Below are positions 1-64,000 of a stretch of 64,000 nucleotides of DNA, in pieces; position 1 is the first letter of the stretch, and each line of letters starts with the position of its first letter. The notes under the pieces are model-generated. The model saw only the letters and a list, made by a program, of their open reading frames with translations, did not search any database and was not told the origin of the DNA. The position numbers and the translations under genes are program-made. The DNA comes from Antedon mediterranea (Eukaryota > Animalia > Echinodermata): the NCBI RefSeq assembly GCF_964355755.1, contig NC_092680.1:19663045-19727044 (forward strand). The letters are read 5' to 3'.

Positions 1-3000
1 TTATCCAGAACAAATTCATGTCCAAATTAGTCATTCCTAGTGAATCCTAAAATAAAGAAATTTAATTGCAGATATAAAGTATAGGAATTAAAATCTATAT
101 AATCCATCCATGTTCTAGTGAAAACTTCTACTTACTGTTGACGGATCTCGTGGATTTGCTGGTTCATCCAAATTGTCCATCACATTAAATGCAACACAGT
201 AAGATACTGTATTTGTAAGAAAAAACTAAAAAATACACAAAACGTTACAATAAAAGGAGAAAATTATTAAAATCCATTTAATGTAATTAACCATAATAGA
301 TTATGCATGTACAGTAATGTTAAATAACAATCTTGAATCGAGTCTGGCACTTTCTCTTCTCAAACCTAATTCTTATTGTTTATCCTCAGCACCACACGAT
401 CAAATTAACAGACTTATTCTAGTACTAGAGTGTTGATATATGTTTCAAAACTTAGCTAAAATTCAATAGGTAATGATCATAGTCATAATGATAATGAAGA
501 TGCAAAATAGTAAAAGTGTACCCTGTGTGTTATGTAGTAGTCTAGTTGACCGGCGTAGTCCCATATACTAGTTATGTCACTCACATCTACCTTCCCGATT
601 GTTAAACTTTTATATAAAAACTTCACAGCTTTAGCCACCAAAGTGTTATCATTGTTTTCTAAACAAAAATTACAAAATATTAATGCTGATCAATAAATCG
701 TTTTTAAATCAACAGTATAAACCCAATATTTAGATGTTGGAAAAGTGTCTTAGTTATAGTATACCTTTCCCTAATTTCTTATCAACATTTTTTGCTAACG
801 CATGTTCACGAGTTTCCTTGGATAGCTTTGCTTCTGTACAAAAGGGTGAGAAAAGTACATAATTACTTGTTTAATTTTACATTAATTTTAAATTTAATAT
901 TTAATAGATATTAATAAGTTAGGTATGAAGCAGTGTAGGCCTATTGGTCGAAACTTCGAAAAACCAACAGTTCTTTTCATAACTAATATATTACAAATTG
1001 ATAGGTAATTACATTGTTTGATTCATTGATGCGGTGAAAACTTCTGGCATCAGTACAAAATTTCTAAAGAAATATATATATAAAAACTTTCCTCTCGAAT
1101 AATCTCCCTGCGAGATTCTTATGAAATATACCCTTATCGTGTATCGTTTACCGTTGTTAGAAAACTGCGTGTTTACAAAAAAAAATAAAAGTTGTCTCCT
1201 CCTGAACAATTGTCCGGGGCGATACAATTAACATTGAAAACAACAATCTTTATGTCATTTTATAATCTAAATATTATAGTTAATGTTAAAATTATGGAAC
1301 AATAATGAATGTGACAAATGATGTTTTATACTGTATGTTTTAGTTCAAATTGTTTTTAGCTGCCTTATCTTACCATCTACATCTTTCATCATCCTCCACT
1401 TCCCACTATCATTCCCTCTTGCTTGAAACAATGTCGTGGTAACAATACCATTAGTAGATGGTTCTTTGGAATCAAATCTATTATAACAATGTATGGTAAA
1501 GTTGAACACTAAACAGAAGAAAAATGTCAAGACCGAAACTTATTATTTAGATCAATTTAGATCTTCAATCGAATTTTAAAAATATAAAGGGTTATCATTG
1601 AGATTATGGTTAGTTTATATTGAAGTAAATAAAAATTGATGTTCTACGAAATTCTTTATTTTTATCCTTTAAAATTTTCAAAAACACAAAAAAATGATTT
1701 ATTTAGTATAAAATGCCATTAAAATGATACGTTTGTTTATTACTTTTTTCCAACCATAGCCTTTACACAGCTAGTCTTGCCAGCACCTTCTTTCCCAAGA
1801 AACATACATCTTGAATTTACAAGTGAGATTTTACCATTTTTAAGTTCATCTTTGTATAGCTTGATAGCATTTTTACCCTTAAAATATATTTCTGCTGGAA
1901 CTAACAATTCTAATAAACAAATAGGAATTTAAAATACATTAATAAATCTGTCTTATTTTTTAATTGTTTGACAAAATTGAATGTAGCAATGAAAACTATT
2001 TTGACATTGGTGTTAAGTAAAATAATTATTAAAACCTCACTTACTGTCAAAGAGGTTTAAAATATCAGTTTGTATTTTTGGGTTTTTTATCTCTGTACTA
2101 TTTTCTAAAACAGACACGGGTGTAACTCCTTCCTATAAACAAACATGTTTGGTTAGTATTAACAAAGATTCCTAACTCTAACTGCATATAAACACTGTAA
2201 AAAATATTGAAAAAGCACTAAAATGCTTTAAAATCAGAATACATAATAAAATGAATGTTTCAAATAGTTTTAAAAGTCTTGAATTGATTAGAAAACAGGT
2301 AATTAAAAAACAAACGTTTTGCAAATATTTTAAAAGATAGTCTAAAAATCTATACACAGCGAAGTGCATTATATTTTAAGAGACAAGTCACTATATCTAA
2401 GGTAGGTTCATGTTCAAATAGCAGATATATAATGAGAAATTGTTTTTTTTCTGTCAAAAAACAGATTTGCCAGAAAAGATCGATAGATTGTAAACCTATT
2501 CCTGACAACTATATAGATTACCTTATTTTGCAATGTTGCTGCAGATGCATTATGCTTTAAGAGACAAGTCACTATATCTAAGGTAGGTTCATGGTAACTA
2601 TTACTCAGATATAAATGTAGTGGAGTGTTTCCATCCTTGAAAAAATGAAATTCATTGAGGTAATTAATACTGCCGCTATAATCGCTATAATATAATGCAA
2701 AATTGGTTTTCCGTTATTTTATTATTATTTTTGATAAGCCAGTGCCAATTTCACAATTCATGACAACAACTATCGAAAATTACTTCTAAATCTAGTAGCA
2801 AATAATCCCAATTGATTTAGAATGATGAACATTAAAAAAAAGATTTGCCAAAGAAGGTCCATAGATTATAAGCCTATTCCATGACACGTATATAGATTAC
2901 CTTATCTTGCAATGTTGCCGCAGATGCACTATGCTTCAAGAGACAAGTCACTATATCTAAGGTATGTTTATTCCTATGACGCAGATATAAATGTAGTAGA

Positions 3001-6000
3001 GTGTTTCCATTCTTGAAAAAAATTAAATCATTAAGTTAATTAATACTGATAATTAAAAAATTAGTTTTTCTTTGTCATATTTGATAAGACAATGACAATT
3101 TCGAAATTCATGACAACAAATATCAACAATTACTGCTAAATCTAGTAGCAAATAATCCTATATCGTACGCCTATTCCTGACAAGTATTTAAAGCTATTAC
3201 CTTATTTTGCAATGTTGCTACAGATGTATTATGCCTTAAGAGACGAGTCAATATATCTGAGGTAGGTTCATGTCTAAATAGCAGATATAAATGTAGTGGA
3301 GTGTCTCCATTCTTTAAAACAAATCAAAATCATTGAGTTAATTAATACCGATAACCTGTGTCTAATAATCCAATGACAATTTCACAATTCATGACAACAA
3401 CTATCAACACTTCTAAATCTGGTAGAAAATAATCTTAATTGATGAATGATTAACAAGAAAAGTAGATTTGCCACAGAAGATCCATAGATTGTAAGCCTAT
3501 TCCTAACAAGTATATATGATTACCTTATTTTGTAATGTTGCTGCAGATGCATTATGCTTTAAGAGACAATTCACTATATCTAAGGTAGGTTTATTCCTAT
3601 GATGCAGATATAAATGTAGTGGAGTGTTTCCATCCTTAAAAAAATTAAAATTCATTACAAAAATAGATTTACCAGAGACGATATATAGATTGTAAGCCTA
3701 TTCTTGACAAGTATATAGCTATTACCTTATTTTGCAATGTTACTGCGGATACATTATGCTTTAAGAGACAAGTCACTATATCTAAGGTAGGTTTATATCC
3801 ATAACTCAGATATATGTGTAGTAGAGTGTTTCCATCCTTGAAAAAATCAAAATCATTCAGTTAAGTAATACTGATAACAGCTTTAATGCAAAATTGGTTT
3901 TTTTTTGTTGTTGATATAAAGTTTACGGTACCCCACGTATATTAGTTCTGAAAGAACTGTTGAGTTTCTCGACCTTTCGATCAATATGCTTTGATCGTCC
4001 TCAGGAGTGAGAATGCAGAAAGTCCAGGAAACTTGGAATATAAGTAAAAAGGGGTGGGACTGGTGTGGAAGCCAGAAACAATGGCAAGTTCACAAAGTGG
4101 AAGGGATTGAAACTAGCTATAGAAGAGCGTTGTTTCTGATAGGTGTGAAAAGCAAAGTGAGATAAGCTAAAAACAATAGCATTGTCTCGAAGCTGGGTGT
4201 AGACTGGCCAAACAAAGACCATGTGTCTAGACAGGATTCTATGGCATGGTTTACTGTCGATGAAGATTCTTGTTGAATAAAGATAGCCAAATGTCACTGA
4301 TAACAAATCCAATATATTGATAAACAGTGTTGTGTTTGTAGATTTCAATAACTTCCCTGGTTCGTCTGGAAGAAACGGTAACAATTAGTTCAGCATCTTT
4401 CCAATTAACTCGGTGTTGTTGTTTGTGAGAATGCATAAGTATTGATGATTTGTCTTGCTCTCCTCTTCTGGCATGGCCTTGATGTTCTTCGAGCCTGTTT
4501 GAGCACCTTCAATTATACCGAAGGAAGAGATCATCCAACAAATAGAACCTACTTTGACAGGTCAAGAACATTCGTATGCATTCAACTGTTACGTCAGGGC
4601 ACTAAACCGAAATCCAACATCACCAAGGAAGAACGAGATGCTCTTAGAACTTTTATCATCTGGCAGCACAACAAGGTGGACTTAGATAATTTTCTAACAC
4701 ACCTAAACTCTCAACATTGAATTATTGCATTCACCAGGGAAGAGGAAAACGACCACAGTTTACCATTCCTTGACGTATTTGTCACAAAAATCTTTTTTTC
4801 AGAATTAATATACGTGGTGTACCGCAAACTTTATAGCAACATTTTATTTCGCCATGCAAACCTTCAAACAATATATGGGGTTTCTTTGTCATATTTGATA
4901 TGCCAATGACAATTTCATTCATGACAACAACTATCAACAATTACTGATAAATATAGTAGCAAATAATCATTGATTGTCAATGATGAACAAGAAAAAGTAG
5001 ATTTGCCAGAGAAGATTTATATATTGAATGCCTATGTAAAATAGCTATTACCTTATTTTGCAATGTTACTGCAGATTCATTATGGTTTAAGAGACAAGTC
5101 ACTATATCTAAGGTAGGTTCATGGTAACTATTATTCAGATATATATGTAGTGGAGTTTTTCCATCCTTGAAAAAAATAAAATCATCATTGAGTTAATTAA
5201 TACTGATAACTGCTATAATGCAAAGTTTGTTTTTCTGTAATATTTAATAAGCCAAGTTCATTCAGAATACCAACAATTACTGCTAGATCTAATAGCAAAT
5301 AATCCTAATTGATTGTCAAGGAGGAACATAGAAAATACATTTGCCGGAGATAATATATGATTGTAAGCCTATTCCATGACACGTATAGATTACCTTATTT
5401 TGCAATGTTGCTGCAGAAGCACCATGCTTCAAGAGACAAGTCACTATATCTAAGGTATGTTGATTCCTATGACGCAGATATAAATGTAGTGGGGTGTTTC
5501 CATACTTAAAAAATCAAAATAATTGAGTTAATTAATACTGATAACTGCTATAATGCAAAATTGGTTTTTCTTTAATATTTGATAAGCCAATTTCATTCAG
5601 AATACCAAAAATTACTGCTAAATCTAATAGAAATAATCCTAATTGATTTTCAAGGAGGAAAAAAGAAAATACATTTGCCAGAGATATCTATGATTGTAAG
5701 CCTATTCCATAACACGTATATAGATTACCTTATCTTGCAATGTTGCCGCAGATGCACTATGCTTCAAGAGACAAGTCACTATATCTAAGGTATGTTGATT
5801 CCTATGACGCAGATATAAATGTAGTGGGGTGTTTCCATACTTAAAAAAATCAAAATAATTGAGTTAAGTAATACTGATAACCGCTATAATGCAAAATTGT
5901 ATTTTCTGTAATATTTGATAAGCCAGTGCCAATTTTACAATTCATGACAACTATCAACAATTACTGCTAAATCTAGTAGAAAATAATCCTAATTGATTGT

Positions 6001-6862
6001 TAAGGAGGAACAGGTAAAAATAATCATTAACTCTATTATCTAAATATGAAATTGTGTATATTGACTGACATGGGCCAATCCCGCACTGTTCACTTGTTAA
6101 ACAAAATACATATATATTTATTAGTTACATTATATTTACTAACTACATGTCGCTTTTAGACCGTACCTTATCGATAGCTTCCACCAATGGATACGTAATA
6201 CAAATTTGTTCAATTCTTTCCAAGTCATTACGTAGAAAAGCCTGTTTCCACTGTACTGTAAGAATTTTAATTAATTAAATTTTTGAAAAAAATAATTCAT
6301 TATTACTTGTATATATTCATTATTAATCAATTTATTATCAAAATAATAAAATTTAATATAATTTTTTTTAAGATTTTGTATCAAAATGTTATTCTCTACC
6401 TAATTTTATGAAAATTAGTCATTTTTGTATCAACATGTTCAGCTCTACCTTAATTGTTGTTTTATTTAAAATTAACCTTAAAATCTTATTCAAATATGTA
6501 GCTTTCTGCCTATTATCTTTAATTTATTAGTGTCAAAAAATGGACTTTTATCTGTTGGTAGTGGCACGAATTGCTATTACGTGTTTCGGGGCGATTAAAG
6601 ATGGAGAAACTTCCTTGTGACATAAAATACAAACACATAACAAACAGGAATCCAATTATAAACTTTACAATAACTCTTAAGAGATCATTCTCACTTTACA
6701 ACCATTCTCCATCCCTTTTTGTTCCTCAATTCTTTTAACATATTTTGTTCCAGAACGTTGTATTAGTTATGTTAACTTAGGTTAAGGAATGGTGCAGTTA
6801 TTACAGTTGGATTTGAAATGTTTAAAATACTTACCTCTCCTTTTAAAAACGTCTTTATTCAT
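1..6862 (-). CDS. Ankyrin-repeat ROCO-family GTPase (ANK array + ROC domain); 3' part lies outside the window
   Basis: Frame-consistent GT-AG exons in transcription order: 6862-6835 (MNKDVFKRR), 6255-6167, eight ankyrin exons (5839-5729, 5504-5394, 5165-5052, 3836-3726, 3634-3524, 3311-3201, 3011-2901, 2635-2522), 2132-2045 (EGVTPVSVL cap), 1909-1744 (VPAEIYFKG...RCMFLGKEGAGKTS, P-loop), 1477-1374 (EPSTNGI, switch I), 833-765, 658-522 (IWDYAGQLDYYITHR, G3), 225-136 (FFLTNTVSYCVAFNV), 46-1 (LDMNLFWI). These are the characteristic ROC motifs. The start exon is less certain than the rest. Confidence 0.88.
3910..4840. mobile_element. Rearranged Penelope-like retroelement fragment with inverted terminal segments
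   Basis: Minus strand encodes a GIY-YIG C-terminal remnant (NRLEEHQGHARRGEQDKSSILMHSH...NWKDAELI...RRTREVIEIYKH). Plus strand 4600-4790 encodes a PLE RT remnant (SNITKEERDAL; FIIWQH..LDNFLTHLNSQH*IIAFTREEENDHSLPFLDVFV). About 40 bp at 3915-3951 is inverted-repeated at 4799-4835. Confidence 0.85.
3968..4007 (-). ncRNA. Minimal type I hammerhead ribozyme motif (Penelope pLTR-associated)
   Basis: Reverse complement reads ctc-CTGAGGA-c-GATCAA-agcata-TTGATC-GAAA-ggtc-gag: conserved core boxes, 6-bp stem II, ctc/gag stem I. Confidence 0.7.
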
Positions 6863-8779
6863 GTTGGCTTATGGTAACGAAAATTAGGTCTAAGCGTTCT
6901 CTTTTGGAAAATATAAAAGTAAATAATAATGTAATCCTATGTCTCTGTAAACTGATAATTTGTATACATTTCTTTTTCTATTATTAAGTTGTATGTAGAA
7001 GTCTAGGATAGGCCTATACTGAATACCAACGATATGGATCACTCAGATTTTCAGAACAAGAAAAAGAGACTCATAAATAATTCTAAAATGCTTTATATAT
7101 CAAACCGAAAACAAATCAATGCAAAACAACTGTTTGCCTCACAGTAACTTAATGGTACAAAAGGAATGCTATATTCTTTCACCTACTAGAGAAATAAAAT
7201 GGAGTGACATTATTTACTTCCGTTAAAAGAGTGTACATAGAGTAAAACCATTTTATAGGTCTAATGAACTACAGTATTTTGTTTCATCAAAACCACTTGC
7301 ACATACAGAATTTTAACAGCATTTATGGTGTGTTACTATTAAAAACTATTATTTCATACTTACATAAATCTGTTCATAATCGTTTCCAAAACGGTCACGA
7401 CATATCAATAGCACTTGTCTTCTGGCGTTGCTGTATCAATATATATCAATGAGTAAGTAAGTAATGACTTCGGACTTTCCTCATACTCTATTTAACTGTA
7501 ATCTTTGTTGTACTAAATAACAGAAAAAAGGTCTAAGATTTTCGACCATCAGAAAGTGTTTTTATTTTCTTCAAAATGTCTATATATACTTAATTTTATT
7601 TGTTTTTGGTAATTAAGTGGAGACTGCCAGATAAATAGATAAAATAATTAACCTAGTGACCCATACAAAATCATCATTCTAAATGTATAACCTGTACGAA
7701 TGTTCTATTGAACGTCAACAGCTACTGTGTGGGACATGAACAAGCAACAATGAAGTTCAATTATAAAAATGAAGTGCGTTTTTAGGTTTAAGACGGTTGA
7801 ATGAATATGTAATAACACCCAGTATTGAAGATATTTTAGCCGGAGGTATTTTAAAGAATGTATACATGGTGTAACACCATTTCTACTGGACTATTATAAA
7901 AAAAACATCAGAACCCATGAATTTATTTTAAATCTGTTAAGACAGGCCTTTTTTAGAAGGTATCATTAGCAATACGTGACAACTGTTCACACCTCAGCAG
8001 TTGACAGTCTGTATATAACTGTCTATGATCGGATGTGAATTATTGCTGAAAGTGAATTTCTGTTTCTTGTGACCACAAAATGTGTGTTTGAAGACAATAG
8101 TCTTTAAGAGACCGAATAAAAAACTTGTCAATAAGTTAAGTTTATTAAACATGACATGAATATCATATTACTTGCTGTTGTGCTAACCTCATGTTTGCCT
8201 AATACAACATTTCCTTACATATTTAATCAACTAAGTTGATGTTGTTTATCATGGTAATATTGTAGCTCTGTTATATTTTTCAAATATTTTTGTCTTTTTC
8301 TATATTACTAACCTTCAACTAATTTTGAGCAATTGTATGTACTACAATTGTATAACTATGAACTATTTAAGTTAATACATATTTTTTGTAAAGTTAACTT
8401 CCTGTACTAAACGTCATAACAACGAAAACAAATTCATGCTTTTTTAATATAGTGGGAAATGAAGCAATAATTAAGCCTACATATATACTAATCTATATAT
8501 AGATGTTTGTTGAATAAAAGACAAATTCTGATTCAAACGTTAGGGCTATTGTTGTTTTAGGAACGCTAGTACACCAAAACCAGTACAGTTTCATGATCAT
8601 TCAAAAAATGTCATGATATTTTACTCACAAATTGTCAAGACCAAACAAAGTAACGTTTTCTGCTAAAAACACAGTAAATAATCTTAATCAATTATCATTA
8701 ATGATGAAAGAGACAACAAAGTGAGTGAGATGGGTTATTTGTTTCAGATCCAGTCTTAATCAGTGCCACTGTTTTAATA

Positions 8780-8885
8780 CCGTACCTTATATATATACAT
8801 ATATGTTCACAACACATGGATACTATATACAAATTATTTGGTCAATTGTTTTCAATATGTAGAAAGCTTGTTCAAAATAATTGTA
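8780..8885 (-). pseudogene. Decayed copy of the second coding exon of the ANK-ROC gene
   Basis: ccgtacctta...atggatac...tacaaatt...gtagaaagc resembles 6161-6255 and keeps the same donor, but has indels and a TA expansion. Confidence 0.55.
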
Positions 8886-9267
8886 CAATTTTTGTTTAAA
8901 TAAAAGAAATAATGCAACATTACATGTAGGCTCAATCATTAATTCATAACATTTATTCATTCACTAGTCGACCACTTTTGAAAATATAAAAGCTAATCTT
9001 TAAATTAATATACAATCTTTCCTAATAAAATATGTTTGTCTCTGTGAACTACAGTAATTCTTTTTCTATTGTTTTTAAAATTTCTCATCGCCAAAAAACT
9101 GCAAATTGTAACAGGGAGGGATAGATTTTATTAGCAAATTGACGGCTTACCCCAATGGGGCGAATTCGTATATATATATATATACTGTACATTCTAGTAA
9201 CACCTAATTTCCCCAATACCATCATTCTAAAATGAAAAAAAAAATCGAAAATCCATTTTAGGTCCTT

Positions 9268-9364
9268 TTAGTCGTGTGCAACGCCACTATGTCGGTCGGT
9301 TGGTCGGTCGGTAAACACTAACTTGAGCACGCGACTACAGCCATGTAGCCTATATGGCCTTGTT
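9268..9364 (+). mobile_element. Non-autonomous Helentron-type (DINE-1/HINE-like) element
   Basis: Starts in a T run (tttagtcgtgtgc), has a (GTCG)n microsatellite, an internal inverted copy of the 5' end (gcacgcgacta) and a 3' hairpin (gccatgtag..ctatatggc). It is absent from the paralogous site near 11485. Confidence 0.65.
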
Positions 9365-10384
9365 AAGTTATAATTGTATCATTTGCAAACTTACAATAGT
9401 GAAACGTTTAATCTGGTAGCTGAAAAACTATATCATTACAAAAAACAAACAAGTTTCACTCCTTCTACCTTCATCAGTTATAGACTAGATCAGGAAGTAT
9501 GTATAACTATAAGTATCACCTGTGAGAATGTCCTATTGAACGTCAACAGTGAACTTCAATTATAAAAATGGAATGCCATTATTTGTGTCGTACCGTTGAA
9601 TAAATAACTTGTAATAACACCAAGTATTGAAGGTATTTTAGCAGAGGTATTTCAAAGGTTGTATACATGGTGTAACTGTTCTGTTTCAACAAAAATATTG
9701 CCCTACAATATGTACTTTTATTGTATCAATTATTCTTAAGACAATTATTTTAAACAAATATCAGAATCCATGAATTTAATTTAGATTTAGATTTCTTGTG
9801 ACCCCAAGTGTACAGTATTTGAATACAATAGCTTTTAAGAAACCGAATAAAAATGAAGCACGAATAAAAATGGTCAATAAGTTAAGATTTTTAACCATGA
9901 AATGAATCATATTTCTTGCTGTTGTCCTAACTTCATGTTTTGCCTAATACATCATTTCCATGGATATTTAAGTTAGGCCTAATACATATTTTTGTAAAGT
10001 TAACTTTCTGTACTAAACGTACGAAAACAAATTAGTAACTAGATTTAATTTGTCACTATGACGAATTATAGGTTATATGCAACGATTTAAATAAAGATAA
10101 TTTTTTTTAAGATTGATTTTGTCTTGATCTTTAATTATTTATAATATGTGAAAGATAGGATCTTGGTAGCGCAAATACAAATATCCGATATCACTGTGGC
10201 ACATCGAGCCACTTGAATAAAACAATCCGATCAAAGATCCCTCCGCGTATATGTCATACCACCCTTGTTACATAATAGTAAAGACATAAGTTACTCTAGA
10301 TTTTATTATACATCAGGCGTACAATTTATACACTAAGAAATAAAATTGAATAAACAATACGGATATATTTAGTATTATTTCGTT

Positions 10385-10470
10385 TCGATTCCGAAGGTGA
10401 GATTCGATCTCAGTACCTCGACTGCTACAGGAGACGCGATCACAGACCACCGAGCCATATACACACCTGA
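10385..10470 (-). mobile_element. tRNA-derived SINE head
   Basis: Minus strand has A box-like TGGCTCGGTGG and B box-like GATCGAATC but no good cloverleaf. Confidence 0.45.
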
Positions 10471-13400
10471 ATAAAAAATGAAGAAAGATTCCTCCGTGTA
10501 TTTACTATGCAGTAACCACTTTGGTTACATATCGCAATGAATCATATTTTTTTTATACTATGATGACATCTTTAAAAATTTTAAAGAATGATGCACTGTC
10601 AACGTATATATACTTTTAACTTTAATATATGAACTTTTTAAAGAAGAAGGTTAAGTTTGCTATTTCGGTCCAAGAAAATGTCATAGTTTGTTTGATTATC
10701 GAAATAATTTTTTTTTTATTTAATATGATAACGTAACGAATAAATCATAAATATGATACATACACTTACAGATGTATGAAAAATGAAGATTACTTAAATC
10801 AGACTTTATTTTGTAGTTTTAACAAAGTTAACCACTTCCGTAGAAAAAAACGAAAAAAATGTTTTCACTTATAAAATGAAAAAATAAATGGTTCAATTCA
10901 ACCAAAAACCCACTGGCTGGCAGCCAATATGACCATTTGTTTTGCTTTAAATTACATTTTTTCATGTAAATACATTTTTCCGATCCAATTTTTGGTCAAA
11001 GTGGATAACTATTATGTTACATTAAATATTATATTCAACAAACATTTTTTTATGAATCATTTTTTCAGGGGGAGAATACATGAATGAAAAATAAAACACG
11101 AAACACTTAATTTTAGTATATCTTTGAAATTATAAAGTTGTAAAAAGTATCATTTTGAGTGATGACGTACGCTCATACAGCAAGGCGGTACGATTAGTGG
11201 GCATTTGTGGAGGGGGGAGTGGGGTCGAATCATAAAAAAAACCCTGACTACGGGCCTGGTCTATAATCATTTTTTAAATAAACATATATTTTCATCATTG
11301 TTTTAGCCTACACATATGCTTATTCTGTTATGTGCTCGTACAACACAATTTCAAGTTAAAAAGTGAATAAAATATAATGACATTGCTAAAGAAAGGTTGG
11401 GGCGAATTCGTATATTGTAAAAATATACCTCTACCACTTAATTGCTCTAAAATGAAAAAAATCGAAAATCTATTTCAGGTCCTTTTTAAATTATAATTGT
11501 ATAGAAGTTGGGAGTACCAATACAACTATTTGAAAACTTACCGCGTGAAACATTTAATCTGGTAGCTGAAAACACTATTAACAAACTTCATCCGTGATAG
11601 ACTAGATCAGGAAGTATGTAATAATACTAAAGTAATACCTTTAATAACTACTGTGTGGGACACGCATGAACAAGCAACAATGAAGTTAAATTATAAAAAT
11701 GGAGTTCTTTTTAGCTTTAGGACGGTTGAATAAATTCTAAACATGTAACAATACCCAGTATTGAAGGTATTTTAGCCGGAGGTATTTTAAAGAATGTATA
11801 CATGGTGTACCACCATTTTAGGTCTAATGGACCGTTGTTTTAACAAAAATATAGGCCTACAATGTTTACTTTTATTGTATCAATCGTTCTTAAGAAAATT
11901 ATTATAACCAAATATCAGAATCCATGAATTTATTTTGATGGATTTTTTCAGACAAGCCTTCTTTAAAATGTTCCATGGATAAGGGAGAGGGGGACTCTAG
12001 CTACCTCCTGTCTTTCCTTCTTCAAGTGACAACTTTTCACATCTCCATAGTTGACATCCTGTACATGCCTTGCAATGACGCGAATCATTGCTGAAAGTCA
12101 ATTCAGTTTCTTTGACCCCAAGATGTGTATTTGAAGGCAATAGTCTTTAAGAGAAACCGAATAAAAATGTTCAATAAGTTACGTTTATTAACCACCGAAA
12201 TGAATAATGCATCATTTCCATATGGTTTTTATATACTGTATTTAAAAAATATTTTAAACAAAGTTTTAAATATTTTAAAATATGTTTTATATGTTGTTTT
12301 TTAATATTGTTTTATTCATGAACATTTTACTTTTGTGATTTTGATCAAATAAAATAAATGAATAAATGAACTAATCAGTAATTATAAGCATTGCTTTTTT
12401 TATATAGCAGAGAAAGCACTAAGTAGGCATATTGAATGAAAGACCAATGTTGATTCATAAGTTAGGACTATTGTTGTTTTATTCAGGCAAGCTAGACTTA
12501 GAATGGAGTTTGTATTGTTCAAAAGCCATCATGATTGTAAAAGAGCTACAATTTAAACGTTTCTAAAGAATCGAATTGTGCTATACAATGATTATATCTT
12601 CCTTTACAAATATTCAAATTTTTGGTTTAATTTAAAATCATAAGAACATAGGAGAACAGTTTTTATTTTAAACAATGGTAAAAAAAAATGCTGAAATTAC
12701 GAATAGTGTAAATTTATTTAAAATTACAGTTACTAAATTACTATTAATGCTACAATAACATTAATTGAATATTTATACAAATATTTAAATTATTGTATAA
12801 TGTAATTAATGTCTCAGGTGCAATCAGTTAAACTTTTCACAGATAAATATGTATATCATTGGCTGTAGAAGTACACTGGTTGCTTCTTTGCATTGTGGCT
12901 TTGTTAATTATTTATTATTTATTTATTTATTCACTTTATTCCTTTCAGTAAAGACAATACTGAGAGACAAAAGCTGTCAAAGACTACTATCGCCAAAGAG
13001 CGTGCCTCTCCAACTCCAACATTCATACAGATATGCACTAAAAACTAATTAAGCAAAATTACTAGCAATAAACGCAATTGCGAGGCCAATCATGATTCTG
13101 TTTATAAAAAACGAATACAAGGAAAATTACTACACGAGTTCCTCTTGCTATGCATAGCATAGATACCAACAACTACTACTATTTATTCAGAAAATTTTCT
13201 ACAGAACTAATTTTAAAGATATTTAATTTCAGACATTCTCTATCTAGCTTGATTTAATCTGTTTCACTAATATTAAATATTTGTTTAAAGCTACTGAAAT
13301 TACAAATGGTATATTGATTTCATATAATGTAGATCCTCTTTGTACAGGTACTGTTATCCCAGGATCCAGAGTTTTATTATGAATTGTCCAGTAAGTTTGT

Positions 13401-24851: not shown

Positions 24852-27210
24852 TAACTTTTCTGTGAGCTTTACTTTATCGCTTTGATTTAGCTTTTCGCTT
24901 TTTTTTTGTATCTCCATTGAGATCCAGCCACTGATTTTTCTGTATTTTGCCTTTGGATTTATTAATAATGATTAATAAATATGTCAATATGTGTATATAT
25001 TGAATACACTATCAGTATCTGTATTTTCTATCTGCTATGCATAATTTTTATTTCACAAAAAAATGACTGGTTAATACCTGTAGTAGTACAGTAGTTAAAA
25101 GTAATAATGCATTATAAAATGACAAGTCCTTTTACCTACACAATACAACCATTTCCCTTGGGATTATTAATCTACTAATACACAGCACTTCTGTACTACT
25201 ATTTAAGTACTAACAGTACTACAGTATTTGAATACTAACTACAAACAATACTAAAAACAATACTATTCTATTCTACACGTACAGTAGTACAGATTTTGTT
25301 TTTAATTCTAATGCATTTCATACAATGTGTTGTATAAAATATTGTTAGCTGTCTGAGTCGAAATTCATAATGTTGTCGAATTCAAGATCAATTTTTAAAT
25401 TTTGCCAATGTACCTTGAATTGAATGGCAAATATCATTAAAATAATCAGCTTATCCTTATGTGAGGTTCGGTTAATTATTAATTCTATCTATAGAATCTA
25501 CTGTATCTATGTAAGTTCAGGGAATAATTTCGCCAGTGTAGCATAGCAAAAAGCTATACAAAACAACCTTCTTGCTACACATTTCTACAATTGTGTAGCA
25601 AAATATACTACAGAAAACTATGTATCTATTTATTAGCAATATTGCTAAACAAAATTTTAAGATGAAATTTTTCCTTGAAGTTCACCTACAAAGAACAGAG
25701 CGCTTAACAATGCAAGCATTATTCTTTTTTTTTTTTTACAGTTTTAAGTTTCAATTGTTGATTAAGAGATTGTGTTATTATGTAGTGAAATTATAATAAT
25801 GTTAAAATAGATCTACAGTATTAACTAATATCATTGTTAAGTTTTATCATAGAGCTATCAAAACAGAAAGAAGGCACAGTATACTGTGCACATATCTCAA
25901 CATTTTATAGAATTTTAACAACTCACGCAGTTATGCAGAAGAGGTCTCTAATAGATAAGACGCCATTGAAAACAATTTTTTTCATAGAGATGCAAGCTGC
26001 TAATTTTATTTTGAAGGAGCTTGTGAATGTGAAGCAACTTTGTTTCGTTGTTCTAAATGGTTTTATCAAATAAAATGATCTATGAATGAGGAAGTGAATT
26101 TCGAAACGTAAAAGAACCTTTTATGAAAATGTGTTCATATTTCATTTTGTTGCCATAGACTGGAACTCATCCAGATTTTTTTGGGGAAGGTCTACAGGAA
26201 GAAGGTGCTGTGGTTACCACATCTATAGCGATTAGCCAAAAAAACACTAAAGTAATCTACTGTATGTACAATACAAGGTTCGAAAATACGCTTCTACAAT
26301 AACAAATAGTACAGTAGGTTTTGTTACCTCCAAAAAGGACATCATTTTTTGGATCTGCCTATTGTATTCATAGGAATATTCTCCACCATGGCTAAACTAC
26401 ACCTACTAATCACAGTTTAATATTTATCTGTTATTGACAATAATGTTAAAGGTATGTGAGAGAATGTAAACAGTAATCTAGTACTTGATATCAAATCTTC
26501 ATATCTTAAGGAGCCTTCAATTTGTTGTGACCTGGAAACTAGTTACTTTATTGTGCACATACATGGATATTTTTGGACATGCTTCCTCATTTCTTGGCTT
26601 TCTCAGTTTTGGCAGCTTCTTTCTAGGTCCAGATTACCGACACAATATGCATCGATGCGTAATATAAGTCATTGGTTATCGAAGATCGAAAGCCTCTGTA
26701 CTATTTTCAAGCCCAGACCCCCCTCCCCCATTTCAAGTTCTATATCTGCCCTGTAGGCCTACTTTAATTTACAGACTTATTCAAGCAGACACAACTTGTT
26801 GTTGTGCTGACCCTTCTCTGTAGTGCCATGTGACAAGAAAGATGACCCAAGGAAATCATTTTGAAAGTACAGTGTAAAGTGAATCATAACCTAACTGAAT
26901 AAATATTCAATGAATTCAGTATTGCATCAAGTTGTACAGTAAAAAAAACGTTAAACTGTACAAGAATTATTGTTATCATTTTCCTGCCTGTAAACTAATT
27001 ATAAAGATATATTGACCTCCTGAAAAAATATTTTTTTTAAATGTTTTTTCATATATACTGTAGTTATTCACTTATGACCAAAAATTTGATTGAAAATAAA
27101 ATAATAGTAAAATTTACTGGATGGAAGTCAATTGTGTTTTTGGTTGAATTTAATTCTTAATATTTATCTTGAATTGAAGGAGATGTTTTTTTAAAAGGGG
27201 AAACAACAAA

Positions 27211-27738
27211 GTGTCCCATGATATAGAGGTTGTCCCATGAATGAAGGAGATGTCCCATGAATGAAGGAGATGTTTCATGAATGAAGGAGACGTCCCATGA
27301 ATGAAGGAAACGTCCCATGAATGAAGGAAACGTCCCATGAATGAAGGAGATGTCCCATGAATGAAGGAGATGTCCCATGAATGAAGGAGATGTCCCATGA
27401 ATGAAGGAGACATCCCATGAATGAAGGAGACGTCCCATGAATGAAGGAGACGTCCCATGAATGAACGAGACGTCCCACGAATGAAGGAGACGTCCCACGA
27501 ATGAAGGAGACGTCTCATGAATGAAGGAGACGTCCCATGAATGAAGGAGACGTCCCATGAATGAAGGAAACGTCCCATGAATGAAGGAAACGTCCCATGA
27601 ATGAAGGAGACGTCCCATGAATGAAGGAGACGTCCCATGAATGAAGGAGACGTCCCATGAATGAAGGAAATGTCCCATGAATGAAGGAGACGTCCCATGA
27701 ATGAAGGAGACGTCCCATGAATGAAGGAGATGTCCCAC
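27211..27738. repeat. 20-bp minisatellite, about 25 copies
   Basis: Unit (c/t)gtcccatgaatgaaggaga. It explains the repetitive ORFs at 27150-27799. Confidence 0.97.
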
Positions 27739-30700
27739 AAATAGGTGTTATCCTGAAAGGGTTGATCCCTGAAAAGGGTGTCCAAAAAGAGTACAGCATA
27801 CAGTATATTTATTTATTTGTTTTTTATTGTTTGTATTTTATTATTATTTTTCATTATTGATGAAATAAAATTAAAGATTTATGCACAGACATTTACGTAA
27901 AGTATTACAATTTACTTGACAGACAAGATTTGTCTTACAACATAAATGTCTTGCTGCTTTAATTGAAAGTAAAGCTACATAGTGTAGGTGGACTAATTAA
28001 TACAGATTAGATTTCTTGGTAAATTGAATTATAGATTTTATGGGAGTCATTCAAAGGTTATATGTGCCATAAAAAAAGATAATGTATGCATAAAGTATTG
28101 CTGTTATTGTCATCCTCAGAATTGCTTTAAATGCTGTGTGTAAAATCATTCCTATGGTGTATGGTGGACCATTATGTCAAGAGTTGGTATCCTAGCAACC
28201 CTCTACCAACAACTACCTGAGAAATATGACTAACACAACATGAGTTGCCATTACTAAAGGATATGAATTGAAAAAACTAAAAATAATACTGGCATAAATC
28301 ATTTAATATTCTTTTTTTTGAACAAATAGAAGGACTGATGTTTTCTATTAAACAAATGCACAACAACAAATTGTTTATAGAGGTATAACATCTGTATTTT
28401 TTTGTCATACTATAAAGCATTATAAATAGAGTTACTGTACCGCAATACAGTACAGTATCTGGTTTTTTAGAAAGTCTGGTATTCTTAATGAATTTTCAAC
28501 CTTTTGTGCCTAAAGGAAAGTCTGGTATTAGAAGTTTTCCGAGAGTCTGGTATTAAAGGAGTATACTGTAAGTGTAATAGCACTGTGACATGCTTGCTTA
28601 CAATTCCCAGAGTTCTTGGTTTAAATCCTGTCAAAGTTCCGTTAGTATATGGCCAGTTTGCAGAAACCCAGTTTTCGGACTCGTTTGCCGAGTCCCAGTC
28701 GGCACACAAAGACCAGAATTTCAGAGAAAAAAATAAAACTATGGAAATTTTTACTTTAATCAATGGTTTCTTTTAACTAAGATACCTGGTGTTTTGTAAT
28801 GTCTTTTTCATACGCAACAACGGAAAAAAAAACCACAAGCCTACAGGTAGCTAAGCCATAAACTGGGAATCGGCAAACTGGCCTAGATAAACCACCTCAT
28901 GTGAGACTTGGTTTAGAAGCATGGGTTTCCCATGGCATCCTGTAATTGGCGAGTCATGCATTTTCTGCTGGATGGATGCTAAGATAATAAAAAGATAAAT
29001 TTTATTTAAAATTAATAATTTCTGTATTTTACTGTGTGTAATTGCTATTGTTTTGTTTTAACTTTATATCTTGTGCTATTACAGTAGTAGTACTAGGGCA
29101 ACATTTTATAATCACAGTCATTTAAAGGGTACAAACAGAAGCATCCTGCAGAGACGCGAATTGAAGACAGCATGCAACGTGTCATTCTTACCCAAATGCC
29201 TAGATTCTACAAACTTCCAATCTGTTGGACTAGAATTTCCTTCTTAGAAAAGATTAAAACACACTTGAATTCTGCTAAAAACCTTGGATTATCTTCAGAA
29301 AAATCATTTTGATGAGGGCTTATAATATTATATTCTAACAAGTGTTATAGGCCTACTACATACTACTTAGGCCTAGGCCTAATGAACAATATCATTTACA
29401 TCCTATTTAATAGAAAAGAAATTATATTTGTTTGATAGATTAAGCGAAGTGTTGACATTTTTCATCACTGTCTAAAAAAAAACCATATATGCATGATACA
29501 GTAGGATGGTAAAATTGTTAGATCAGATCCAGATGCATCTTATATAACTTATATTTTAATTGGTTGACATACCTAACTGTAAACTAGAAATTCAAAATAC
29601 GTTATTCTTCTTTCGTTAGTAATTGTATTTTCTAGCAAAATCATTGTACTGTAGCAAACATAGTAAATAATAATCATGGTTGGCAGCTTTTATTAAATAA
29701 TATTGCCTGGATTTGCAACAAATCATTGTAGTGAAATTCTTTGATTCAAAGTATAACACTAATTTTACCTCTTTTCATACAGGCCTACCTGAAATTTTTA
29801 AAAGCTCTGTTATTTTGATTGCCCTAAAACTTTTATAACAATTGTGTAAAATAAATTTCATTTATTGTCACGAAGTAGAACCATTTCAAAAAAAATGAGG
29901 CCATTCAGAAATTTGATAAAAATAGTATATAATTTTGTATAAAGCTCTGTCTAAACTCAAACTAGTTTGACAACAAAAGTGTGAATTGCCTAAATATGGT
30001 AGTGATATGGCATCATCATGTCGTCTAATGGGCACATCACATTTTTTTGTCACATAATGTTTTATAGTGTAGATTGAAACAGTATCCAGTAGAAGCTAAC
30101 CAAGAAATCTAGATGATGATGTCTCTTTTTGACAGTAATGTTTCTGTTTTGATGTCTAGACCAAAATCTCAATCGTTTGCTTCTCAAATCATCCCCTTGT
30201 TAGTCATTTAACATTTCTGCTGGTACAGTATGTTGTAATGGAGGAGACTGACACAAATCCGCTGCAATGTGACATTTTCAAAATGTATTTATTTTTAAAT
30301 ATTTTGATTTGTATTTCTTGAATTGTACTGGTACAAATTTCAAACAAATTTTTCAGCAGACGACAAATATTGTTCTAATCAATAATTTTACAAAAGTTAA
30401 TTAAATGTTTGCGTTTATTAATTAGCATAGCATGTTTCAAAATCAATCCCTTATTAGCCATTTAATTAAGATTGTTTTTACGAATGTGATGCATGAATTT
30501 GTTTATACATTTTCCGATGTACATTGTCATGTACTTATAAAAGTGGCTAAAATAAATCCGGTCTCTGATTTGTGGTTCATGAGAAAATTAAGTTTATGTT
30601 TGCCATGTTTGATTCCCATGATGCATCTGACTAGTTGATACATTACGGTAGGGCAGATCCAGACAGCTGAAATGAAATTATGAATTTGTGACAGCTATTA

Positions 30701-32050
30701 AAATTATTATAATTATATGTTAGATTTTAGGGCTAACCCATTAAACAAATCCTGGATCCGCCAAGTGTACAGTATTGTATCTTCAGTTTTACTTTTGCTT
30801 TACATCATATTCTTGGAGCATTTACAACCATACTAAAAGTAAAATCATCATGTTTTTTTGTTTTGTTGTGTGCAACTTGACAAAATTTACCAATATCTGA
30901 ATTATCCAACAATTGAAATGTACTTGTTTAACTTTACATGATCAACATTTCTGATAGAGTGCCCTCTATTTACGTAAACCACATCATGTATCATGTAGTC
31001 GCACATTCTACTCTAGGCTTGGCACCTGTTCGTCAATGAACGGGATAGTGTTTAAGTGGTGTGATTGGACGTCGTCCAAGTCCACTTTAAATCATTGTCT
31101 GATGATTGGTTAATGTAACTGTAGTAGGTTTTCATTCTATTTTGTATAAGTGCTTGAGTGCAAAACGGGAAATGGCAGATTATGAAGATTTTAATATTAT
31201 TTCATACTTACAGTATTTAAATTTACTGCAGTAATTTTTGGAATATTTAGTACTGTAGCTATTTTATTTAGTTTTTAGCTTTTTTATTTTTTCTGTACAA
31301 TGAATAAAATACATACATATTACAATGCACATTATGTATCATCACACACATTTTTTAAACATTCTGAACATCAAATTAGGAGTAAGCCTTTCCTCTTCGT
31401 TATCTGTCTATGGTTAATCATTTTGTTATATGATTATTCATTCCTCAAGCTTTGTTTTTCATTATAATTTAGCATAGGAAGGAAGTCCCCAGTTTTATTT
31501 ATAAGATGCATGGTTTATCAAGAACAGTTTAACTCGCTCGCCGGGTGACTGACGGAACAACTGACATTGTTGCAACTTTGCATATATTTTTTTTATACTA
31601 CGCTTCGTGACTTGATTGCAAAAATAACTGTACTGTAATTATAACAAAAGCCCTGGAGTTGCTAATAGTTTGTGGTGACATTTGTAATTGGGATAATGAT
31701 CATCTACAGCTTGTCGAAAAAACTGAGAGCAATTAAAACGGAATAATAAACAAACGATTTCATGCGTCATGACAAATCAGTTTTAGCAAAAAGTAGATAA
31801 TTTCAACAGTGACATAAAACTTTGAGTGCGGTTTTTTTCGGAGCTTTATTCTGGTTATTCTCGTTATTGACATTTCAGTTTGTTTCAGGAAGTTTGTTAC
31901 TCAGTACTTCAACCTAGTACCATAAAATATAGGATTTGTTATTATAAAACTATAGTTGTTAAATAAGAAGTTTACTTAAGAAGGCTAATCAATATGACCT
32001 GTGAACCTTTACTCTGTTCTAGGGTATTCCAGAGGAGGTCACGACTTAAA

Positions 32051-35000
32051 ATGGCGGTTTTTAAAAAGAATAAAGGTCCAGGGATGATTGGCCGCAAGAA
32101 CGATGACCTTTGGACAAAGACAGGCACGTTCATCAACAAGCCAAACAGAGGTTGGATTCACCCTGATGACAGAATTAAAGTTGGAGGAATCTGCTATGGT
32201 GTTCGGGTAAGACTTAATCTCTATCTACACTTTCAAACTTTATGTGACAAAAAATGTGATGTGCCCATATATGGACATGATGATGTCATATCACTACCAT
32301 ATTTGGGCGTATCACTACCATATTTGGGCACATCATACTTTTTTTTTCAAGTTTGATAGTGTAGACAGAAATTTAATCTTCTTTATTTTTAACAAATTTA
32401 TTTGTTTGAGTTAATGTTTATACAGTAGCTGGTTTATCTTTTTTTAATTACTCATTCTTCAATACAGATATATTCAAAGCAAAGAAAAATTTGATTTGTG
32501 AAATTATATAAAAACCGTCTACTGAAAAAGATTTGATATTTTTAATTATTAATTTGATTTGATAGAAATTGTTAGATATTGCTGACAACAGGGCACCTAA
32601 ACTTTTCCATGGGATAATTTATAAAAAAATATTTATAAGCACAACTTGGCACACACTATACACTAAGTGAATTATAGCAGGAAACGCACTACAATTTATA
32701 TAGTCATGAATACACTTTACACATTTCCCGTACTTGCATGTTGTTCTATTCATCACACATATCTAAACAACTGATGATATCATATGAACTTAAAGAGAGT
32801 GTGAAGGAATCATTTCTGACTACCACCAATTATTTCTGACTACCACCAATCATTTCTGACTACCACCAATCATTTCTGACTACCGCCAATCATTTCTGAC
32901 TACCGCCAATCATTTCTGACTACCACCAATCATTTCTGACTACCACCAATCATTTCTTACTACCACCAATCATTTCTGACTACCACCAATAATTTTTGAC
33001 TACCACTAATCATTTCTGACTACCACCAATCATTTCTGACTACCAGTCACCAATCATTTCTGACTACCACCAATCATTTCTGACTACCACCAATCATTTC
33101 TGACAGTATTAGAAAATTAGATCTGTTTAAAGATAAAAAAAACCCCCAGAATTTAGAATTCAAGATGACTTAATTCAAATTGACTGTATGGATAATCTAG
33201 GGAGTTTACGAGGCATGTTGTGCTATCGTTCAGCGAGGGCAATGTCAGTATTTAGTGTTACTGTCACCAGTATTGCCATCTTTGCATACATTATATAAAT
33301 AACATAATATTTCATAATACCATTGTCAATGTCATCATTGTGAAACAGCATTATAGTGATAATTCTGTGTCAAATCAACAAAATTTAGAAAAAGATCATA
33401 TTTGTGTAGCTTTGTCCAAATCTGAGATGGTTGCTCGGGGGACTCTGGTTTATTTGACACAGATTGACTCTATAAAATCTAGTGTTACAGTAATTTCTGT
33501 GATACAGGGACAAAATAATTAATTCTATAATTAAAGTATGAATTATGATTATGATAATCTGATAGATAGATGAAGATGTTTTGGCCAAAGTTCTATAGTA
33601 CAGAATACTCATTAATTATATTTAAAAAATACATTGTGAGAAAATGGAGAATCGAACACATGACCTCCAGATATTAGCATTCATTACCTCTAGACCACCA
33701 AGCTTGCACATGACAAGTAAGCAACCGGTACAATACTGCACACCACCAAGTTTACATTTTTTTTATTTGGTCTTAGTAGCCTAAATGAGACAACCAAATT
33801 TTCATTTTAAGTGAGATAATAATAATAATAATATCCTGGATTTATATAGCGCCTAATGTTGTGAAACCTCTAAGCGCTGAACATTATTACCCCAGTCATT
33901 TTTTGCATCAAACACATATGGAAACATACTTCCATAAAGCAGCTAGTAAATAATGTCTTGATCTAACTGGGTACTCACTTATACACCTGGGTGAAGAGAG
34001 GTAAACGTAAATAAAGTATCTTGCCTAAGGATACAAGCAATGCGGCGAGAGTTGGATTCAAACGATGATCTCACGATCAGTAATCCAACGTTCAACACAT
34101 TGCGCCACACACCCTTAGATGGGAAAGTGCACAACTTCCGAATAAGTATAGTAAAAGAACTATAACAAGTGAATGTAGAATTAATAGTATGTATAATCTG
34201 TCTGTATTTTTTATAATTTTTTAATAGTATGTTGGTTGTCTGGAGGTGAAGCAGTCAATGAGAACGTTGCCATTTGATATGAGGGGTCAAGTAACAAAGT
34301 AAGTTAACTAACGTTGTTTTTGCACAAGCTTTAAAGATTAATTAGCATGAATTCTATAAATCAGTTACTGATGCAAAAGGATATAATTTAGAACTTTCCA
34401 ACAATATACAGTAAACCTTTGTTGTTAACCTAAAGCTCTGTCTACACTACCAAAACAAGTATGATGTGCCCAAATATGGTAGTGATATGCTTAAATATGG
34501 TAGTGATATGACATCATCACGTCCATATATGGGCACATCACATTTGTTGTCGCATAAAGTTTGATAGTGTAGACAAATCTTAAGATGCATAGCTGACAAG
34601 GACATTTCTCAATTACAGAAATATTAATAAATATAGTTAATAATAAACCTCATAGACAATGATAATAAATACAGTCAACTCTCAATAATGGACACCCTTG
34701 GGCCAGGCTATAATGTTTTCTGGAGAAGTCTGGTAATCAAAATGTGTTTTTAGTGGTAAATAAGAATTTGGGACCTTTTTGTTCTCAAGAAAAATCTGGT
34801 TTTGTGAGATTTTCTGGTTTTACGATATTGGGAGAGTTAACTTTTTTGACCTTCTTAACATTTTGACACTGATACATTGAATGTTACCACCAGGTGTACA
34901 GAAGTTTTATTTATCCTATAGTCAACTTACTAACAAACAAAATTAATTCTTTGTTTATTTTAGAGAAGCAATTTTTCGAGTTTGTGATGCTGCAGGTTTT

Positions 35001-50560: not shown

Positions 50561-51070
50561 CTTTTAGTTTTCCTTCACTGCTTTTTATTTTAAAAAAAAG
50601 TGAATGTTAAAATAATCAGATAGAAAATTGTGTTAAAGTTATTTCATTGGAAATTCATTCCATTATTGAAGGCTATTCTACTCTATGAACATTTGCAGCT
50701 AATTATGTTCATAGAATTAAATATTCCTATGTAATGTAGGCTAGGCTAGTTGTTACCTTTAGTTTACATATTTTTAGGCCTGCCTACTGCTACTCTTACT
50801 AGGGTAGGGGCCTGGTAGGCTCGCTGAGGCTATAGGCCTCACCACCCCAACGAACTAGGCCTAGGTAGGGCCAAGCCGAGTTTACCTTGATCTTGGACAT
50901 CTAAAGCAATGCTTGTGTGTCCCTCCGGTATATTCTATTTATTAGTATTACATGTTCTATCATATCAATCATATGGGGAAAACTTTTAGTGGGTGGTGTT
51001 TCCAAAACTTCTCTAGTCGGTTTTTAAATTGATTAACATTTATTACTAGAGTCTAGGCCCTAGAGTAGAC

Positions 51071-58072: not shown

Positions 58073-58365
58073 ACTTAGATGATACTAGAAAATATAAGTT
58101 TATCCTTTTTGTATAGAAAGTTATTCGGTTCAAATTTCCTTTCTTCTGATTTGAATGATTAATACTTTGCTGGTTCTAATAGTTCACTTCTCAAATGGTA
58201 AAAGAACATGATGCCTGTTGAAGTCACTGTTACAGCACTGGTCTGATGTTTGTAATCGTTTACAACAATATACAGCTTCTAGTCTACTTATGCATTGTAT
58301 CAAATGTAATAAATAAATTATATTTCAATTTAATCTATTTTCATGTTATAATAAATTATTTAGTA

Positions 58366-58635
58366 CTAGATAGCAGGTCCAATGGACGGGCACCATGGTA
58401 AATTATGCATGTTCAACGATGATGGCGCTCTTTAACTGCATGCTTGATTGATTTTGCTAGCCGAGAAACAGCAGCGATTGTTCTAAAAAAACATAGTTTT
58501 TGTACAAATTTACCGTTCTAATTAAGACTAAGGAATGAAAAGGTGCCTCAGCACGGCGCTAGAATTGGATGCGGTATAGGAGGAGATAGATTTTGGCTTA
58601 GTGTTATTATAAATAGAAGATATAGAAATAGAAGA
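58366..58635 (-). mobile_element. 270-bp non-autonomous Helitron
   Basis: On the minus strand it begins TC and ends CTAG with a subterminal GTCCA/TGGAC hairpin. It sits between host A and T with no TSD. The paralogous empty site tttagta|tattaattgaat is at about 60312-60330. Confidence 0.85.
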
Positions 58636-63682: not shown

Positions 63683-64000
63683 AAGTACCAGCGACAGATC
63701 TTCTAAATATCATCCATAATATACGTCCATAACAGTATGTCATAGTTGTGATGGGTAGGAACCAGCCAAGAAATGATCCAATCAGTAGAGAAAATGTGTC
63801 CTTTTCCCGACAGTTCTTAGGAATATTTTCAGTCTTAATAACATTGATAACAACCGCGATCAATCCTGGTAGGTATTGAATTATAAAGCATGCGTAGTAC
63901 AAGATATTTCTTCTTGATTTGTTTTGGTGATAGATGTAGGGATGCACAACAGCGATGTATCGCTCAATTGTTATCACAACCAGATTGTATGAAGATGTAA

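Follow-up and report, generated by a model that had tools for sequence, protein, structure and literature searches.

An exon-modular ankyrin-ROCO gene of the feather star Antedon mediterranea, a candidate intracellular sensor

The closest described counterparts of the gene reported here are the leucine-rich repeat (LRR)-ROCO genes of brown algae, for which positive selection by site models and splicing into multiple isoforms have been shown (PMC3341825, Zambounis et al.; PMC11378527, Teng et al. 2024). Repeat proteins of high internal conservation (HIC), among them NLRs of the fungus Podospora, occur in animals too (PMC13449251). We analysed a 64-kb stretch of Antedon mediterranea DNA (NC_092680.1, 19,663,045 to 19,727,044; hereafter the window). 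Its minus strand carries a gene, cut by the window edge at position 1, that joins an array of near-identical ankyrin exons to a ROC GTPase domain. This gene is likely an intracellular immune-type sensor.

The 17 exons, all with GT-AG introns, joined into 570 codons without a stop (Table 1). The product was identical at 570 of 570 positions to residues 1–570 of XP_071964198.1 (P0001), an NCBI model of 1659 aa named "uncharacterized protein [Antedon mediterranea]". A first-pass annotation of this DNA had described eight exons of 111 or 114 bp that each encode one ankyrin repeat and splice in frame, all in phase 0-0, to a ROC domain with the motifs GKEGAGKTS, STNGI and WDYAGQ. The join bore this out, and GKEGAGKTS, STNGI and WDYAG were present. 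All eight ankyrin exons were of phase 0-0 with AG/GT ends (six of 111 bp, two of 114 bp), and A1–A7 were 87–95% identical in DNA to the last exon (E 1e-34 or better). The introns of the ankyrin exons were homologous to one another, so that the duplicated unit comprised exon plus intron. These introns contained many indels, while the frame, the splice sites and 16 residues were conserved in all eight exons. The only further ankyrin-exon copy detected in the 64 kb, on either strand, was a decayed ninth one at ~2434–2365, absent from the first-pass annotation. Likewise, none of 144 tblastn pieces placed exons of ROCO paralogues outside positions 1–6900 of the window.

The sequence beyond the left edge, in which the first-pass annotation had proposed to look for COR and effector domains, was supplied by P0001; a COR domain was found there, and a death-fold output is likely. 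The model, open over all 1659 aa, consisted of a capping repeat, the eight ankyrin exons, ROC, COR, a spacer rich in Pro, Lys and Glu, and likely tandem death-effector domains (DEDs). Pfam Ank, Roc and COR-A scored above their cut-offs, with COR-A directly after Roc (E 3e-17), and by its domain content the protein is a ROCO protein. The GTPase motifs G1–G5 were intact (G1–G3 in the window, G4 and G5 in P0001). No kinase domain was detected in P0001 by the Pfam scan, and an in-frame stop lay upstream of the ATG. A profile of 14 family members matched structure chains of prokaryotic Roco proteins and LRRK2. The structure model of a paralogue, P0019 (low confidence, pLDDT 49), matched RocCOR structures and also, weakly, the tandem DEDs of caspase-8, cFLIP and vFLIP (E 0.03–0.09 over ~170 columns). 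Pfam DED reached E 7e-6 in P0001, under its cut-off. The C-terminal end of P0001 is described here as likely tandem DEDs. The spacer between COR and the DED-like end (residues 1072–1476) was a Pro/Lys/Glu repeat of 400 aa in which one 9-mer was present 11 times. P0001 and the paralogues P0003, P0004 and P0014 each had their own low-complexity tandem spacer after COR, the types being Pro/Lys/Glu, Glu/Pro/Ser, Thr/Ser/Pro and Asp/His.

Repeats were numbered with TPLH at exon codons 4–7, as in PMC8415598, where the concave positions of ankyrin repeats are given as 1, 2, 3, 8, 11, 12, 32 and 33 and positions 13 and 14 are described as contact-rich too. The ankyrin part was modelled as a capped eight-repeat solenoid (pLDDT 90.9; TM ~0.7 to ankyrin-R/B). 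Of the published concave set, codons 1, 3, 8, 11 and 12 were variable, and in the model codons 11–16 formed the loop after helix 1. Codons 13–17 were a 3–4 residue insertion into the helix 1–helix 2 loop of the 37/38-aa repeat, without counterpart in a 33-aa repeat. This excess was measured by alignment to the 33-aa ankyrin consensus. As modelled, the variable patch is thus the concave face together with a lengthened rim loop, and it matches the position set of designed ankyrin repeat proteins (DARPins) only partly. The analogy with DARPins drawn in the first-pass annotation stood for codons 1, 3, 11 and 12 and failed for codons 13–17, the larger part of the variable segment, an insertion that is absent from DARPins.

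The seven loop sequences listed in that annotation were all recovered, one of them twice, and grouped into only four types. Its description of the framework as "almost invariant" was somewhat overstated: 16 of the 38 columns were invariant across the eight repeats, and 14 extra amino-acid states occurred in the 25 codons off the face and loop. Mean identity among the eight repeats was 0.73, and variability peaked at positions 11–16. The nucleotide p-distance rose from 0.092 in the framework to 0.16 and 0.21 in the intron flanks, and reached 0.29 in codons 11–17 and 0.37 in codons 11–13. Pairwise ratios of nonsynonymous to synonymous differences (pN/pS) were higher in the loop (1.87) than overall (1.11) and lowest in the framework (0.74). 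The column-wise variability of six other paralogues followed that of this gene (Spearman 0.51, p=0.001, 38 columns), with its peaks in the same places.

Codon models were fitted with custom code to the eight exons (37 codons, indel column dropped, no recombination in the model). Five codon partitions were tried, and the loop partition was picked after inspection of the data. The available text of PMC8683736 did not contain the DARPin position list, and the partition relied on was the concave set of PMC8415598. The one-ratio omega of the eight exons was 1.35. For the published concave set, a fixed partition, omega was 2.7 versus 1.05 elsewhere (p(omega>1)=0.023); it was 2.8 versus 0.8 for the concave face plus loop (p=0.01) and 4.1 for the loop only (p=0.002). 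The concave codons contained 13 extra amino-acid states and no extra synonymous codons, and the ratio of extra amino-acid to extra synonymous states was 20:1 on face and loop versus 14:7 elsewhere (Fisher p=0.045). Together these values suggest diversifying selection on the binding face. An omega above 1 at the variable codons, which the first-pass annotation asked for, was suggested by the concave partition and was not significant in the site models reported below.

A paralogue search, also proposed there, returned 19 A. mediterranea clusters on five scaffolds, along with 16 clusters of Anneissia japonica; several of these are fragments. In a midpoint-rooted ROC-COR tree of 14 Antedon and 16 Anneissia stretches, constructed without the short models and the distant Antedon ROCOs P0168, P0238 and P0180, the two species were split at 100/100. 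On this tree the gene belongs to a subfamily with separate expansions in each of the two crinoids. Homogenisation was assessed in the seven Antedon models with at least two long-loop repeats (28 repeats, the two canonical repeats of P0004 being dropped). Repeat identity was 0.73 within genes versus 0.45 between genes, and the nearest neighbour was in the same gene for 26 of the 28 repeats and in another gene for the remaining two. Anneissia and the distant Antedon members had few, dissimilar repeats, with one long-loop repeat preceding the cap, so that the homogenised arrays likely arose by amplification of a single long-loop repeat in one Antedon subfamily.

When the ankyrin region was searched against shorter proteins, the best 120 of 211 matches were all generic ankyrins of at most 38% identity. 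The family profile matched 5723 proteins at E up to 0.001; among the best 150 profile matches, 10 of 136 new proteins carried ankyrin repeats. Seven of these ten were looked up and came from amphioxus (two), a hemichordate (one) and crinoids (four). Read by eye, the other relatives had very different modules ahead of ROC-COR. Individual family members had further peculiarities. Antedon P0014 combined two homogenised ankyrin repeats with two tandem ROC-COR units and, at the C-terminus, a hydrophobic stretch that is possibly membrane-spanning; it could be a fused gene model. P0015 had a DED-like region and ZU5 (PF00791) after COR, and the C-terminus of P0300, a long amphioxus model, resembled a glycosyltransferase by eye.

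Traces of exon turnover were found within the array, namely the decayed ninth exon and the mosaic A8. Exon A8 differed from A3 by one base in the loop and five in the framework, and from A5 by six bases in the loop and two in the framework. The relation of A5 to A7 was the reverse of that seen in A8, with its A3-like loop. These mismatches between loop and framework look like loop exchange. Statistical support for exchange was weak: 94 of 276 site pairs were incompatible, and the PHI-like tests given below were mostly non-significant. The one-repeat isoform pair of a paralogue and three spliced contigs of run X5, both described below, also count towards turnover. Given the phase symmetry of the exons, the number of repeats may change in frame.

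We favour, with moderate confidence, the reading that this ankyrin-ROC-COR protein with likely DEDs is a cytosolic, NLR-like sensor whose array is renewed in the germ line. The concave face and the lengthened helix 1–helix 2 loop would bind a foreign or damage-derived ligand, and binding would shift the dimer or oligomer state of ROC-COR. The clustered DEDs could then recruit a FADD or caspase-8-like partner and lead to death or defence signalling. In the germ line, the array would be renewed by exon duplication, loss and conversion: unequal crossing-over between the homologous introns would change the repeat number in frame, and conversion would homogenise the framework and swap loops. This scheme is drawn from Roco biology, DED signalling and the repeat–switch–effector theme of PMC8195603.

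Several results weigh against a diversifying sensor of this kind, including the single isoform and the homozygous-looking sample described below. The site models were non-significant (M1a versus M2a, p=0.16; M8a versus M8, p=0.057). The loop omega above 1 vanished when the loop was given a separate synonymous rate (p=0.6), and a clustering scan gave p=0.056 and 0.48. Framework omega was 0.8–1.1 and is no measure of purifying selection on the scaffold. Ankyrins in general show some of their highest diversity at positions 1, 3, 11 and 12 (PMC8415598). PHI-like recombination tests gave p<0.05 in only one of eight settings. Many paralogue models were short or truncated. Finally, P0162, which is outside the 28-repeat set, had seven homogenised repeats with nearly constant loops, so that hypervariability is not common to every array.

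Part of this evidence would also fit a relaxed, recent amplification, in which young tandem exon duplications in a redundant family evolve near-neutrally and the loop is merely tolerant of change and escapes conversion. Such a process agrees with the overall omega of 1.35 and a framework omega of about 1, the site models, the truncated paralogues, the decayed ninth copy and the repetitive insertion, as well as with synonymous divergence (pS), which was raised in the loop too (0.17 versus 0.11). Against it stand the frame, splice sites and 16 residues conserved in all eight exons amid indel-rich introns, a loop that diverges beyond the intron flanks, and concave codons with 13 extra amino-acid states and no synonymous ones. 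The same pattern of variation in other paralogues and the open frame of the entire 1659-aa model also argue against it, and we regard it as unlikely.

Diversity could alternatively be generated within each animal, by combinatorial exon skipping or somatic rearrangement. All ankyrin exons are symmetric, so that exon skipping is possible. In the annotation, one paralogue has two isoforms, XP_071957837.1 and XP_071957838.1, whose only difference is a single 36-aa repeat, and brown-algal LRR-ROCO genes diversify by splicing (PMC11378527). P0001, however, has one annotated isoform, and the diversification by exon skipping suggested in the first-pass annotation was not borne out for this gene. The exon-skipping paralogue is a truncated model that leaves the frame at G3, only four loop types occur among the eight exons, and the window contains no opposite-strand exon copy, unlike Ectocarpus (PMC3341825). 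A splice- or soma-generated library is thus quite improbable here, and on the evidence so far exon skipping would contribute no more than secondarily to the diversity of this gene. More broadly, one could envisage a diversified intracellular receptor repertoire of feather stars, in which a long-loop repeat, single in the ancestral crinoid ROCO sensor, was amplified to exon arrays in an Antedon subfamily, loops were swapped within and between genes, and further recombination by exon skipping left each animal with many binders, all on a ROC switch with DED-caspase output. It would be an animal parallel to the shuffling of brown-algal ROCOs, on a natural looped-DARPin scaffold; this wider proposal is unlikely.

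Sequencing runs were compared with the window. Run X5 represents a second sample and is RNA-like (putative type); a control gene showed 0–6 differences per 160–730 bases. Three X5 contigs matched positions 2522–2638, 3523–3638 and 5393–5508 with 7, 10 and 16 differences, respectively. Each consisted of one exon plus a few letters shared with a spliced neighbour (splice-type overhangs). In the contig at 5393–5508, 9 of the 11 listed differences were in codons 11–17, and its loop was unlike any of the eight. Either paralogues or a divergent allele are the source of these spliced repeat exons. X5 contained no long piece identical to the window allele and left several unique introns without cover, which was not taken as evidence on expression either way. 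The DNA-like runs X1, X2 and X4 derive from a single sample, which may be the source of the window, and their contigs lose rare variants. Long pieces of X1 had no differing letter over 3.9 kb at the locus, and a control stretch at the same depth did show differences, so that the sampled animal looks homozygous here. The differences in array between haplotypes or individuals anticipated by the first-pass annotation were accordingly not seen in this sole DNA sample. Hemizygosity was rejected: depth at the locus was 281–328, 49–50 and 8–10 in X1, X2 and X4, near that of the control stretch at 41.5–45.6 kb (237–296, 50–56 and 8–12). Low cover at 5981–6900 was left without interpretation because records had been filtered.

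Table 1. Exons and other features of the ankyrin-ROCO gene (positions in the window).
Feature	Position	Strand	Remarks
First coding exon (ATG), 28 bp, phase 0-1	6835..6862	-	In-frame stop just 5' of ATG
N-terminal capping-repeat exon, 89 bp, phase 1-0	6167..6255	-	Helices 3-17 and 21-30 in structure model
Ankyrin exon A1, 111 bp, phase 0-0	5729..5839	-	Pfam Ank E 7e-6
Ankyrin exon A2, 111 bp	5394..5504	-	Loop identical to A1 loop
Ankyrin exon A3, 114 bp, long-loop type	5052..5165	-	
Repetitive-element insertion, intron A3-A4	3909..4841	.	48-bp inverted ends (90% alike), high-copy termini
Ankyrin exon A4, 111 bp	3726..3836	-	
Ankyrin exon A5, 111 bp	3524..3634	-	Preceded by shortened 91-bp intron
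Ankyrin exon A6, 111 bp	3201..3311	-	Most divergent of the copies
Ankyrin exon A7, 111 bp	2901..3011	-	A1-like
Ankyrin exon A8, 114 bp	2522..2635	-	Apparent mosaic: A3-like loop, A5-like framework
Decayed ninth ankyrin exon, in intron after A8	~2365..2434	-	Both 5' and 3' ends lost; loop nearest A6
C-terminal capping-repeat exon, 88 bp, phase 0-1	2045..2132	-	Helices 342-347 and 355-369 in model
ROC exon 1, P-loop GKEGAGKTS	1744..1909	-	
ROC exon 2, switch I STNGI	1374..1477	-	
ROC exon 3, insert region	765..833	-	
ROC exon 4, G3 WDYAG	522..658	-	
ROC exon 5	136..225	-	
ROC exon 6, cut by window edge	1..46	-	G4, G5, COR, spacer and likely DEDs beyond position 1, known from P0001

Both ends of the repetitive element inserted between A3 and A4 had very high summed depth in the contigs of the sequencing runs. 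Dispersed repeats 5' of the gene (7679–11936, families D9–D13) were unrelated to the array. Elsewhere in the window, a Shc-like adaptor gene was located on the plus strand at 31967–45441, with an SH2 exon at 45169–45438 (Pfam E 2e-14); part of it served as the depth control. Its putative PTB-like exons were assigned by eye from a sequence motif, and the exon tested had no Pfam match. A plus-strand exon at 53785–54120 contained the Vps51/EXO84/COG1 N-terminal domain (E 2e-10) and likely belongs to COG1. Tandem single-exon genes for rhodopsin-type G-protein-coupled receptors occupied 57230–64000 on the minus strand, with two intact open reading frames matching 7tm_1 and further partial copies at 61296–61622 and 63654–63998. 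One of these genes adjoined a reverse-transcriptase open reading frame (61585–63573, plus strand; RVT_1 E 3e-38). A 151-aa lysine-rich open reading frame at 50108–50563 (minus strand) was exon-like in look and had no Pfam match. Tandem repeats at 27150–27812 and 37522–37995 yielded long repetitive open frames and are probably non-coding minisatellites.

Among single proteins, DAPK1 (PMC13755220) has the same order of eight ankyrin repeats, ROC, COR and a death-fold domain. Unlike DAPK1, the protein described here lacks a kinase or calmodulin domain, is DED-like rather than having a death domain, and has homogenised repeats in a multi-copy family. The shared order would fit a kinase-less, DAPK-like regulator of death or regeneration with host partners, and the role of fungal HIC sensors in allorecognition (PMC13449251) would fit a determinant of self-recognition. 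Species-specific expansion and turnover, together with the diversity of N- and C-terminal modules in related proteins, set the family apart from a conserved single-copy regulator. A role of this kind, outside immunity or in self-recognition, appears very unlikely.

The AP-GTPase (Roc)-COR counter-invaders (Kaur et al. 2021, PMC8195603) resemble the gene in their fast-evolving repeats at the N-terminus, their Roc-COR switch and an effector at the C-terminus that varies; those in the available text are bacterial LRR versions, and animal ankyrin arrays are not described there. The ankyrin-Roc-COR order recurs in unannotated models of amphioxus (XP_078583877.1, XP_035661736.1) and a hemichordate (XP_077976934.1). 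In amphioxus, too, the repeats of an array resemble one another (63% over 7 repeats in one model, 70% over 3 in the other), with variation around positions 8–12. In contrast to the gene here, the amphioxus and hemichordate models have canonical 33-aa repeats without the long loop. In the literature searched, which did not extend to subscription journals and supplements, nothing was found on ROCO genes in crinoids or on ankyrin-ROCO arrays with one repeat per exon, nor did the available text of PMC9334734, PMC12314368 and PMC11463336 contain any; such architectures might still be listed in the source-data tables of PMC8195603 or in the domain tables of PMC11378527.

In its evolution the gene resembles the Podospora HIC-NLRs (PMC13449251): near-identical repeats with few hypervariable positions evolve in concert within a gene and are coupled to an NTPase switch and, here likely, a cell-death module. 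Internal conservation was scored here as identity, not as the Psim of that paper. Unlike HIC-NLRs, the switch is a ROC-COR GTPase and not a STAND NACHT/NB-ARC, the sensor lies at the N-terminus and the effector at the C-terminus, and each exon encodes one repeat. The HIC-NLRs show allelic polymorphism in repeat number, whereas our comparison covers a single, homozygous-looking DNA sample.

The close parallel to the LRR-ROCO genes of Ectocarpus drawn in the first-pass annotation held, with a modular ankyrin-ROCO gene, an expanded family, and variation at or near the binding face. Like the brown-algal genes (PMC3341825; PMC11378527), this gene has its repeats ahead of ROC and COR, a symmetric exon for each repeat, residues that vary on the concave face, a non-coding repeat exon in an intron (here one, on the same strand) and a history of gene birth and death. 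The differences are ankyrin in place of LRR, 111/114-bp phase-0 exons versus 72-bp phase-2 exons, the C-terminal spacer and likely tandem DED, and the lack of opposite-strand exons in the window. Evidence of splicing differs as well, consisting here of the one-repeat isoform pair in a paralogue, with one isoform for P0001. As the sensor is ankyrin and not LRR, the gene resembles the brown-algal class of exon-shuffled ROCOs and is not a member of it. The design of a homogenised repeat sensor, a nucleotide switch and a death-fold effector is itself already known. If our reading is true, that design extends to ankyrin-ROCO proteins of deuterostomes with little-studied immune receptors, and the brown-algal one-repeat-per-exon arrangement arose again in animals with a different repeat. 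The array would also represent a scaffold of natural ankyrin repeats whose helix 1–helix 2 loop varies, in a small, well-defined locus where germ-line shuffling and splicing are separable by long reads. On this comparison, the gene is best read as an ankyrin version of the brown-algal exon-modular ROCO candidate receptors that evolves like the fungal HIC-NLR sensors.

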